From the NCBI RefSeq assembly GCF_003334385.1, contig NZ_QOWN01000001.1: 64,000 bases of DNA; one strand, given 5' to 3'. The notes under the pieces are model-generated. The model worked only from the letters and a program-made list of their open reading frames with translations. It ran no database searches and had not been told where the DNA came from. Shown one piece after another: positions 50,607-58,150 of this stretch. A program made the translations under genes and the position numbers. This DNA is from Escherichia coli (lineage in GTDB: Bacteria > Pseudomonadota > Gammaproteobacteria > Enterobacterales > Enterobacteriaceae). Each line of letters opens with the position of its first letter. Position 1 is the first letter of the stretch.

Positions 50607-50620
50607 TGTCCTGTGATCGT

Positions 50621-50654
50621 GCCGGATGCGATGTAATCATCTATCCGGCCTACA
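50621..50654. repeat. REP (repetitive extragenic palindrome) element between convergent cysE and trmL
   Basis: gccggatgcgatgtaatcatctatccggcctaca matches the REP pattern GCCGGATGCG...CCGGCCTAC. Confidence 0.7.
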
Positions 50655-50658
50655 GTAA

Positions 50659-51132
50659 CTAATCTCTCAATACCGCTCCCGGATACCCCAACTGCCGCCA
50701 GGCTTCATACACCACTACCGACACCGCATTGGACAGATTCATGCTGCGGCTGTCCGGCACCATCGGAATGCGAATTTTTTGTTCAGCGGGCAGGGCATCA
50801 AGAATGCTCGCTGGCAGGCCGCGTGTTTCCGGGCCGAACATCAGATAATCGCCATCCTGATAGCTTACGGCGCTGTGAGCAGGTGTACCTTTCGTGGTGA
50901 GGGCGAACAGGCGCTGGGGATTTTCTGCTTCGAGGAACGCGCGATAGTCATGATGACGCGTAACGGCGGTAAACTCGTGATAGTCCAGCCCCGCGCGGCG
51001 CAGGCGCTTATCGTCCCAGGCAAATCCCATCGGTTCGATGATATGCAGACGAAAGCCGGTATTAGCGCAAAGACGGATGATGTTGCCAGTATTTGGCGGA
51101 ATTTCTGGTTCGTAAAGTACGATGTTTAGCAT
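50659..51132 (-). CDS. trmL: tRNA (cytidine/uridine-2'-O)-methyltransferase TrmL
   Basis: 157 aa SPOUT-family protein, [27 protein letters not shown]. Confidence 0.92.
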
Positions 51133-51180
51133 ACTGCCCCCTTAGTGCGGGGGCAGGATAGCAGAAAATTGGTGAGCAGT

Positions 51181-51325
51181 GCGGCCTTTTCCCCTCACCC
51201 CGGCCCTCTCCCCGGAGGGGCGAGGGAGAAAAAAAGAGTGCGGTGTCGTTTCAGAGTGAGGGAGTACATACAGCGCCGAACGGTCCCCTCTCCCTGAGGG
51301 AGAGGGTTAGGGTGAGGGGGCGCAA
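51181..51325. repeat. GC-rich composite palindromic intergenic repeat (nested ccctctccc / gggagaggg and cccctcaccc / gggtgagggg arms), possibly box C-like
   Basis: Nested inverted repeats read from sequence between lldD and trmL; family name is uncertain. Confidence 0.55.
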
Positions 51326-51329
51326 ACGA

Positions 51330-52520
51330 CTATGCCGCATTCCCTTTCGCCATGGGAGCCAGTGCCGCAGGCAACTCTTTACCCAGCCCCTGCACCAGCG
51401 AATCTTGCGTAATTTCGCTGATCGATTTCGCGCCAGTCAGCGTCATCGCCACTTTCATCTCTTTTTCGATCAGATTTAGCAGGTTAGCTACACCCGCCTG
51501 GCCCGCTGTTGCCAGCGCATACAAGAAAGCACGACCCAGCAGTACGGTGTCGGCACCGAGCGCAATCATACGCACGACATCAAGCCCGTTACGAATTCCG
51601 CTATCCGCCAGAATGGCTATATCACCTTTCACCGCATCTGCAATAGCAGGCAGTGCACGGGCGGAAGAGAGTACACCGTCCAGCTGGCGGCCACCGTGGT
51701 TAGAAACCACAATTCCATCAGCACCAAAACGTACTGCATCGCGCGCATCTTCCGGATCGAGGATCCCTTTGATCACCATCGGGCCATCCCAGAAATCGCG
51801 GATCCATTCAAGGTCTTTCCATGAGATGGACGGATCGAAGTTATTCCCCAGCCAGCCGATGTAATCTTCCAGTCCGGTCGGTTTGCCGAGATAAGCTGAG
51901 ATATTACCTAAATCATGTGGACGACCGTTCAGGCCCACATCCCACGCCCATTGCGGATGTGTCACCGCTTGCAAGTAGCGGCGCATTGCCGCGTTCGGGC
52001 CGCTCATACCTGAATGCGCATCACGGTAGCGTGCGCCCGGTGTCGGCATATCCACGGTGAAAACCAGCGTCGAACAACCCGCTGCTTTTGCTCGCTCCAG
52101 CGCGTTACGCATAAAGCCGCGATCGCGCAGTACATAAAGCTGGAACCACATTGGGCGCTTGATGGCTGGCGCGACTTCTTCAATCGGGCAAACGGAAACC
52201 GTCGAGAGAGTAAACGGAATACCATGCGCGTCCGCCGCTTTGGCTGCCTGAACTTCGCCACGACGCGCATACATGCCACACAAACCCACCGGAGCCAGTG
52301 CCACCGGCATCGACAATTTCTCATTAAACAGCGTCGTTTCCAGGCTTAAGTCGGACATGTTTTTCAGAATACGCTGGCGCAGCGCCACTTCTGACAAATC
52401 TTCCACGTTGCGGCGCAGCGTGTATTCAGAATATGCACCACCATCCATATAGTGGAACAGGAACGGCGGCAGAATGCGTTGCGCTGCGGCGCGATAATCG
52501 CTGGCTGCGGAAATAATCAT
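51330..52520 (-). CDS. lldD: FMN-dependent L-lactate dehydrogenase
   Basis: 396 aa, [38 protein letters not shown]. Confidence 0.95.
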
Positions 52521-57949: not shown

Positions 57950-58150
57950 CCCGAGAGGGCTGGGGTGAGGCTTTTCCCTCACCCAAACCCTCTCCGTGAG
58001 GAGAGGGGCAGCGCCGGATGCGGCGTAAGCGCCTTATCCGGCCTACAAGAACGTGCAAATTCAACAAATTGTGATGCATCCTGTAGGCCTGATAAGCGTA
58101 GCGCATCAGGCAATTAACCCCACCTTCTCCATGTGGAGAGGGTGGGATTG
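57950..58150. repeat. Repeat mosaic in the mtlA-mtlD spacer: two REP elements in inverted orientation (58013-58047 and 58083-58111) flanked by ccctctcc/ggagaggg and gggtgagg/cctcaccc hairpins
   Basis: Read directly from sequence; REP copies match GCCGGATGCGGCGTAAGCGCCTTATCCGGCCTACA. Confidence 0.75.

Follow-up and report, generated by a model that had tools for sequence, protein, structure and literature searches.

Fold-back inhibition of read-through transcripts is reportedly at work in the transposase genes of IS10 and IS50. In these elements, the gene's own promoter starts transcription inside an inverted repeat and yields an mRNA that lacks the 5' arm and is translated, while transcripts that come from outside carry both arms and form a hairpin over the ribosome-binding site (RBS). 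Promoters of the rrnB P1 type have a GC-rich discriminator and are under negative control by ppGpp/DksA. Lastly, mRNAs that are terminated by Rho or contain REP sequences are said to end in protective stem-loops.

The trmL locus of Escherichia coli can be compared with each of these. As in IS10 and IS50, its transcription start lies between the arms of an inverted repeat and the 3' arm covers the RBS; unlike them, trmL is a housekeeping gene of the chromosome and does not belong to mobile DNA, its promoter uses the 5' arm as discriminator, the hairpin also marks an RNA 3' end, and the element is conserved order-wide with compensatory changes, the silencing itself being predicted from RNA folding. 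As in rrnB P1, the -10 box is directly followed by GC(G/C)CCC and the product belongs to the translation apparatus, but the trmL promoter has an extended -10 in place of an UP element, Fis sites and a consensus -35, and starts 7 nt after the -10 hexamer as opposed to 9. With the protective stem-loops it shares a stable GC stem with no U-tract, the location in a Rho-dependent region and an RNA 3' end that follows the stem within a few nucleotides, whereas it differs from them in being single-copy and non-REP and in overlapping the promoter and RBS of the next gene. Like an intrinsic terminator, it is a GC-rich hairpin that closes off an upstream operon and is followed closely by an RNA 3' end; unlike one, it has no U-tract in Escherichia and most Enterobacteriaceae, and its terminator score is below threshold. 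A literature search found no published description of this promoter-hairpin element. The reading that we favor on balance is that it combines a compact trmL promoter with a fold-back insulator, by which read-through RNA would be silenced and brought to an end.

Gene setting of the trmL hairpin

The window, i.e., the whole 64-kb stretch of DNA that was analyzed, is E. coli K-12-like, and trmL in it codes for the tRNA Cm34/Um34 2'-O-methyltransferase. The genes and spacer features are the following.

50659-51132, minus strand: trmL (yibK) coding sequence, from the open reading frame list and the RefSeq annotation of the identical sequence
51130-51132, minus strand: trmL start codon AUG, paired within the extended helix of read-through RNA
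51188-51321, minus strand: two GC-rich repeats, HPG2 and HPG1 (Kaplan 2016), in the lldD-trmL spacer
51330-52520, minus strand: lldD, the gene upstream of trmL
Minus strand: lldP and lldR, together with lldD and trmL
Plus strand: cysE, gpsA, secB and grxC, with cysE convergent to trmL

The lldD-trmL spacer is 197 bp long in the window, and lldD is where read-through transcripts toward trmL originate in Escherichia. The two GC-rich spacer repeats are in opposite orientation (51188-51230 and 51283-51321), with arms at 51191-51212 and 51298-51319 that are 86% complementary; they were described as 'G-quadruplex/hairpin' motifs (Kaplan 2016). They lie outside the conserved trmL element and are missing from many E. 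coli strains, and their presence or absence accounts for the differences in spacer length, which is 197 bp in K-12, 72 bp in strain Ec387, and 47 bp in UPEC129 and 2012C-4221. Such spacer repeats were likewise observed in three of the compared loci (L002-L004). A second Term-seq 3' end, at MG1655 3781065 (window 51282), falls after the first spacer repeat (Adams 2021).

Several other observations were made in the vicinity. A further copy of the GC-rich repeat family occupies window positions 57955-58010 (gggctggggtgagg ... ccctcaccc ... ccctctcc gtga ggagaggg) and is directly followed by the REP-like gccggatgcggcg. In an ionizing-radiation evolution experiment, four variants in the HPG2 repeat were found in all isolates (PMC11344242); they map to MG1655 3781140-3781152, about 51195-51207 of the window, and, the repeat being multi-copy, may have arisen by gene conversion or faulty mapping instead of selection. 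The convergent genes cysE and trmL are 52 bp apart, and between them lies a REP-like palindrome (50615-50650) with a weak Rfam match to naRNA4 (26 bits, under the gathering score), and a perfect 8-bp GC hairpin, ccggcccg cgcagaa cgggccgg, is found between gpsA and cysE at 49735-49757; the sequence given for an abundant 'orphan' 3' end at MG1655 3782582 (-) includes this hairpin (Adams 2021). Finally, a Rho termination region antisense to trmL was listed at MG1655 3781526 (-) with a score of 3.4 (Adams 2021, Supplementary file 2). This position corresponds to about 50821 on the plus strand of the window, and suggests that cysE read-through into trmL antisense is halted by Rho.

Anatomy and stability of the hairpin

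The original prediction of a perfect 8-bp inverted repeat, ctgccccc / gggggcag, ahead of trmL, with the Shine-Dalgarno (SD) sequence in one arm, was borne out by the sequence. The site was also right, although the interval of 51135-51157 was off by one base: on the plus strand, ctgccccc is at 51134-51141 and gggggcag at 51149-51156. On the trmL strand, the RNA thus reads ...UUUUCUGCUAUC-CUGCCCCC-GCACUAA-GGGGGCAG-U-AUG, with a single base between the end of the 3' arm and the start codon.

51149-51156, minus strand: hairpin 5' arm CUGCCCCC, missing from RNA that starts at 51148
51142-51148, minus strand: hairpin loop GCACUAA, 7 nt
51134-51141, minus strand: hairpin 3' arm GGGGGCAG, containing the trmL SD (UAAGGGGG)

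Structure prediction, which had been proposed as a check, was performed by RNAfold on a 41-nt segment and returned -19.9 kcal/mol (z = -3.6), a stability reached by none of 200 dinucleotide shuffles. The predicted helix runs past a C.U mismatch and pairs the A, U and G of the start codon, such that both SD and AUG of trmL are masked by the fold. It is to be noted that the window contains about 16 perfect GC-rich hairpins of at least 8 bp, as against 1.6 +/- 1.6 in shuffles, and that most of these are functional elements; since about 16 similar ones occur, one such hairpin is by itself not decisive, and conservation is a stronger argument for the trmL hairpin than its mere presence. The 7-nt loop also brought up the idea of a tRNA anticodon-loop mimic for TrmL autoregulation, which was rejected, as the loop is GCACUAA and is not conserved. 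The anticodon loop of the TrmL substrates, which we take to be UU(C/U)AAAA, is unlike it.

Promoter and transcription start

A promoter that overlaps the 5' arm, missed in the first reading of the sequence, was found in the form of an extended -10 element, of which the final CT provides the first two bases of the 5' arm.

51155-51163, minus strand: extended -10 element TGC-TATCCT, with TG at 51163-51162 and the hexamer at 51160-51155
51148, minus strand: trmL transcription start, a G that is the first loop base (MG1655 3781199), giving a 16-nt leader

When the sequences were anchored on this element, the best-conserved bases were not those of the stem but TGnTATnCT upstream of it. T(-12), A(-11) and T(-7) were invariant in 58 sequences, and TG was found in 54 of the 58 (53 of 57 loci, plus the window). 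Among the four loci without TG, three have better hexamers, namely TATAAT in Hafnia and TATACT in two Edwardsiella, and an extended -10 sigma-70 promoter should show just such an offset of a lost TG by a better hexamer. The TG is at -15/-14, one base before the hexamer, and the start lies 7 nt downstream, within the 6-9 nt of that promoter class. These features argue that trmL has an extended -10 sigma-70 promoter, TGnTATnCT, with no usable -35 and with activity that is predicted. A consensus promoter and terminator scan detected nothing at the hairpin site, because such a scan needs a -35 hexamer and a U-tract. On the other side, trmL is missing from the published RpoD 'constitutive promoter' SELEX list, which counts against the promoter model, and the RNA polymerase binding recorded by Shimada SELEX in the lldD-trmL spacer is about 70 bp upstream of the ATG. 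SELEX peaks of sigma-28 and sigma-24 in the spacer were set aside as too coarse for use as promoter evidence.

Between the -10 box and +1 lies the discriminator GCCCCC (51154-51149, minus strand), which is part of the 5' arm. It is GCCCCC in Escherichia and GCGCCC(C) in most other taxa; thus, the six or seven bases after the -10 box, GC(C/G)CCC, are discriminator and 5' arm at once. By analogy with rRNA promoters, a GC-rich discriminator suggests growth-rate or stringent control of trmL. The hints for this are weak; yibK mRNA dropped together with ribosomal-protein mRNAs in a 6S RNA mutant, and the Salmonella yibK start was detected when cells were in early stationary phase and was not detected in late stationary phase (Ramachandran et al. 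2014, PMC3963941).

From the -10 spacing alone, and before the published starts were examined, the start had been predicted at G 51148 or A 51146. In Salmonella SL1344, dRNA-seq placed the primary yibK start 17 nt ahead of the initiation codon (Ramachandran et al. 2014, PMC3963941, Table S7). Its context is ...TGCTATTCTGCCCCC-G(+1), the promoter string ends in ...TGCTATTCTGCCCCCG(+1), and the -50 to +1 string ends in TTTCTGCTATTCTGCCCCCG, with +1 being the G right after the C-run (PMC3963941). This is the 7th nucleotide after TATTCT, the homologue of the -10 hexamer of the window. In E. coli, the insert of the 'entire 5' UTR + ORF' construct begins, by its forward primer, with GCACTAAGGGGGCAG, and the construct starts GCACTAAGG, in which the G is homologous to the Salmonella +1 (Adams 2021); hence, the Salmonella start is read directly from dRNA-seq, whereas that of E. 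coli is deduced from primer design. With the start at the first loop base, the mRNA that trmL's own promoter produces opens with a 16-nt leader and is devoid of the 5' arm, and therefore the hairpin can form only in transcripts begun upstream. The original prediction had named a start mapping past the hairpin as the result that would speak against it, and the mapped start, which is the first base of the loop and already past the 5' arm, is in substance that result. Its suggestion that the hairpin modulates trmL translation accordingly fails for the gene's own mRNA, and survives for read-through RNA, the only RNA in which masking is possible. Two details of the published filtering rules bear on the start: they should have discarded a 3' end 19 nt after a start, and they imply a start within 200 nt upstream of 3781065 (Adams 2021). 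A second start further upstream, if real, may place the hairpin in a long trmL leader.

Conservation of the element and its attachment to trmL

The 64-nt hairpin core shows an identity of 99% or more in 5343 of 5421 E. coli genomes, with a single copy per genome. For a wider comparison, 80 trmL loci were sampled, one genome per species, and an element of about 60 nt was found to precede trmL in 57 of them. The taxa with the hairpin are Enterobacteriaceae, Erwiniaceae, Yersiniaceae, Hafniaceae, Budviciaceae, Acerihabitans and Photorhabdus; within the same 80 loci, the covariance model did not find it in Xenorhabdus, Moellerella, Pasteurellaceae, Rheinheimera or Marinobacter. In the 57 loci the model (R1) matched exactly once per locus, directly upstream of trmL, and in the 64-kb window it likewise matched once, at trmL. 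A REP/BIME or other dispersed repeat was rejected on these grounds, i.e., one copy per genome and one match per locus. An Rfam scan of the trmL region gave sub-threshold noise only and no family match.

In some taxa the element lies behind lldD, and in most of the others behind cpxA, the CpxA identifications scoring 790-800 bits; in Citrobacter and Lelliottia the upstream gene is that of an aromatic-acid MFS transporter. The spacer upstream of trmL in other taxa is as short as 35 nt. Since the element travels with trmL behind unrelated upstream genes, it is not a feature of lldPRD, and the sequence comparison assigns the hairpin to trmL.

In Erwiniaceae just a few nucleotides separate the cpxA stop codon from the -10 region downstream of it (2 nt from the TG in Mixta, L043), and the cpxA-trmL spacer of 35-42 nt is made up wholly of the -10 box and the hairpin. 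The tight spacer is seen in loci L032, L037, L040-L045, L050-L052, L055, L057 and L058 (about 1960-2000); therefore, any -35 or UP contacts must sit within the cpxA coding sequence there.

Selection on base pairing

With the E. coli stem register held fixed, the covariance-model alignment gave no covariation. However, the distance from the -10 box to the stem is greater by 1-5 nt in other clades than in E. coli, and because its register relative to the -10 box differs between clades in this manner, the fixed-register count shows nothing. The pairing was recounted with one register shift fitted per sequence, which carries a fitting bias, and against shuffles that ignore phylogeny; on these terms, 74% of the cells were paired in the register-normalised alignment as against 63.2 +/- 1.1 in shuffles, 42 cells were changed on both sides as against 18.8, and the covariation score was 0.28 as against 0.13, none of 500 shuffles reaching the observed value in any of the three. 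In addition, cognate arms were more stable than chimeras by 2.2 kcal/mol (0 of 10000 permutations), and in 37 of 53 sequences the sense RNA surpassed the antisense in stability. Individual compensatory changes were also found: at one stem position G-C is swapped to C-G (26 vs 16 sequences), and changed arms remain complementary in Rahnella (GCGUCCCUC/GGGGGACGC), Tatumella (GGCUCUCG/CGGGAGCC) and Pantoea (CUUCGGCCCUC/GAGGGCUGAAG). The loop varies from 3 to 13 nt among taxa and is conserved neither in length nor in sequence. These comparisons indicate that the pairing of the hairpin is under selection across Enterobacterales, with the support appearing only after the register is fitted per sequence.

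Predicted masking of the RBS, and the 3' end of read-through RNA

The cost of opening the RBS was computed over -13 to +3, once for RNA starting at +1 and once for read-through RNA. It averaged 6.7 kcal/mol from +1 and 15.9 kcal/mol in read-through RNA, a computed difference of 9.2 kcal/mol, and was higher in read-through RNA in all 57 loci; the E. coli values were 5.8 and 13.9 kcal/mol, respectively. From this modeling we infer translational silencing of read-through RNA.

51129, minus strand: RNA 3' end by Term-seq (E. coli MG1655 3781218), 5 nt after the stem

This 3' end is represented by 1468 reads with a Rho score of 3.68 (Adams 2021, Supplementary file 3), and is flagged 'significant Rho termination region: Yes', while its intrinsic-terminator score is 1.92 with a threshold of 3 (Adams 2021). 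The DirectRNA-seq counts upstream and downstream of it were 425/96 without bicyclomycin and 942/784 with bicyclomycin (Adams 2021). The strongest nearby Rho signal is inside trmL, at 3781497 (score 8.4; Adams 2021); with a resolution set by 800-nt windows, the Rho signal could be simple termination after the trmL ORF. A trmL reporter transcribed from +1 did not respond to Rho, in contrast to the significant signal in the genome, and its authors had no explanation for this (Adams 2021). We propose that the reporter was unresponsive because it started at +1 without the 5' arm, and was hence translated and protected from Rho.

Proposed mechanism and alternative explanations

In the mechanism that we propose, an extended -10 promoter would be followed by a C-rich discriminator doubling as the 5' arm, with the start 7 nt after the hexamer, and RNA from this promoter would have a 16-nt leader in which a strong SD is free. 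RNA begun upstream, in lldPRD in Escherichia and in cpxRA in most other Enterobacterales, would contain both arms and would fold into a stem-loop of about -20 kcal/mol, with SD and AUG buried. Consequently, trmL would be translated from its own promoter only and would be insulated from lactate or envelope-stress induction of the neighbor operon. The read-through RNA, untranslated past the hairpin, would be stopped by Rho and trimmed to the stem-loop, which would then cap the upstream mRNA; this last part is partly shown, as the 3' end and the Rho region are observed and the trimming is deduced. More tentatively, this may amount to an order-wide 'origin gate', in which the discriminator is the anti-SD, only RNA born at the trmL promoter is translatable, the promoter is of the stringent type, and read-through RNA is folded, Rho-terminated and trimmed.

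Since the arms of the hairpin coincide with a discriminator rich in C and G and with a G-rich SD, their complementarity might be a mere by-product with no function in RNA. Non-cognate arm pairs still reach -13.3 kcal/mol, there is no covariation in fixed register, and the stem register slides between clades, all of which would fit; but the advantage of cognate arms over chimeras (0/10000) and the excess of double changes over shuffles (0/500) do not, pairing is kept in Rahnella (GCGUCCC/GGGACGC), Tatumella (GGCUCUC/GGGAGCC) and Pantoea (CUUCGG/CUGAAG), and the outer stem pairs fall outside the SD and the core discriminator. We therefore regard a by-product as unlikely. The same pairing data make it very improbable that the palindrome acts as DNA, i.e., as an operator at the trmL promoter to which a dimeric regulator binds. 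The inverted repeat is perfect and covers -8 to +16, a typical position for a repressor; nonetheless, the arms differ in sequence from genus to genus and still pair, the sense strand tolerates G.U pairs and gives an RNA of greater stability than the antisense strand, and a loop of 3-13 nt would break half-site spacing.

Two other alternatives accept an RNA structure and differ in the transcript that it serves. A plain Rho-independent terminator of the upstream operon that abuts trmL by chance, akin to the original suggestion that the hairpin is part of the lldPRD terminator, would agree with the GC-rich stem and the RNA 3' end 5 nt past it, and in some taxa even with the tail, as the stem is followed by UUUUUAC in Serratia and by UUAUGCUU in Pantoea. 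In the window, however, the stem is followed by no U-tract but by UAUGCUAA, a tail common to Escherichia, Citrobacter and Enterobacter; the U content of the tail ranges from 1 to 5 of 8 nt among taxa and is not conserved, in contrast to the stem. Together with the negative terminator scan, the published score of 1.92 (below 3), the significant Rho region and the occurrence of the element behind unrelated genes, this renders an intrinsic terminator improbable and leaves of the lldPRD suggestion the 3' end just past the stem. A translational operator in trmL's own 5' UTR, tuned, for example, by temperature or a bound factor, would explain why SD and AUG are within a helix and why the stem is conserved, and could draw on the extra upstream start hinted at by the Adams filtering rules and on the polymerase binding about 70 bp upstream of the ATG in the Shimada SELEX. 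Yet the Salmonella primary start and the E. coli construct both begin at the first loop base, the conserved -10 box always puts +1 after the C-rich arm, and there is neither an Rfam family match nor a conserved loop. A riboswitch, thermometer or other 5'-UTR operator has its structure in its own mRNA, while the 5' arm here is upstream of the mapped +1, and we consider such an operator quite unlikely. The promoter combined with a fold-back insulator thus remains the reading that we prefer.

Significance

The biology of this reading is incremental rather than surprising; its logic is known from IS10 and IS50, and it is the trmL element itself that had gone undescribed. It corrects the operon picture of a widely used region, in that trmL does not simply ride along with lldPRD but is served by a conserved promoter of its own, and in that the trmL ribosome site is predicted to be shielded in read-through RNA. 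It also offers a possible explanation for the puzzle of a genomic Rho signal and an unresponsive reporter (Adams et al. 2021), and provides a natural case, outside mobile elements, of one short sequence serving as discriminator, anti-SD arm and 3'-end stem-loop, which is useful for the annotation of compact intergenic regions and for the design of genetic insulators. If the 'origin gate' is true, a fold-back device of the IS10 type would have been domesticated for a housekeeping gene of tRNA modification and retained while the upstream neighbor changed several times, and a stringent-type promoter would tie the supply of TrmL to growth rate.
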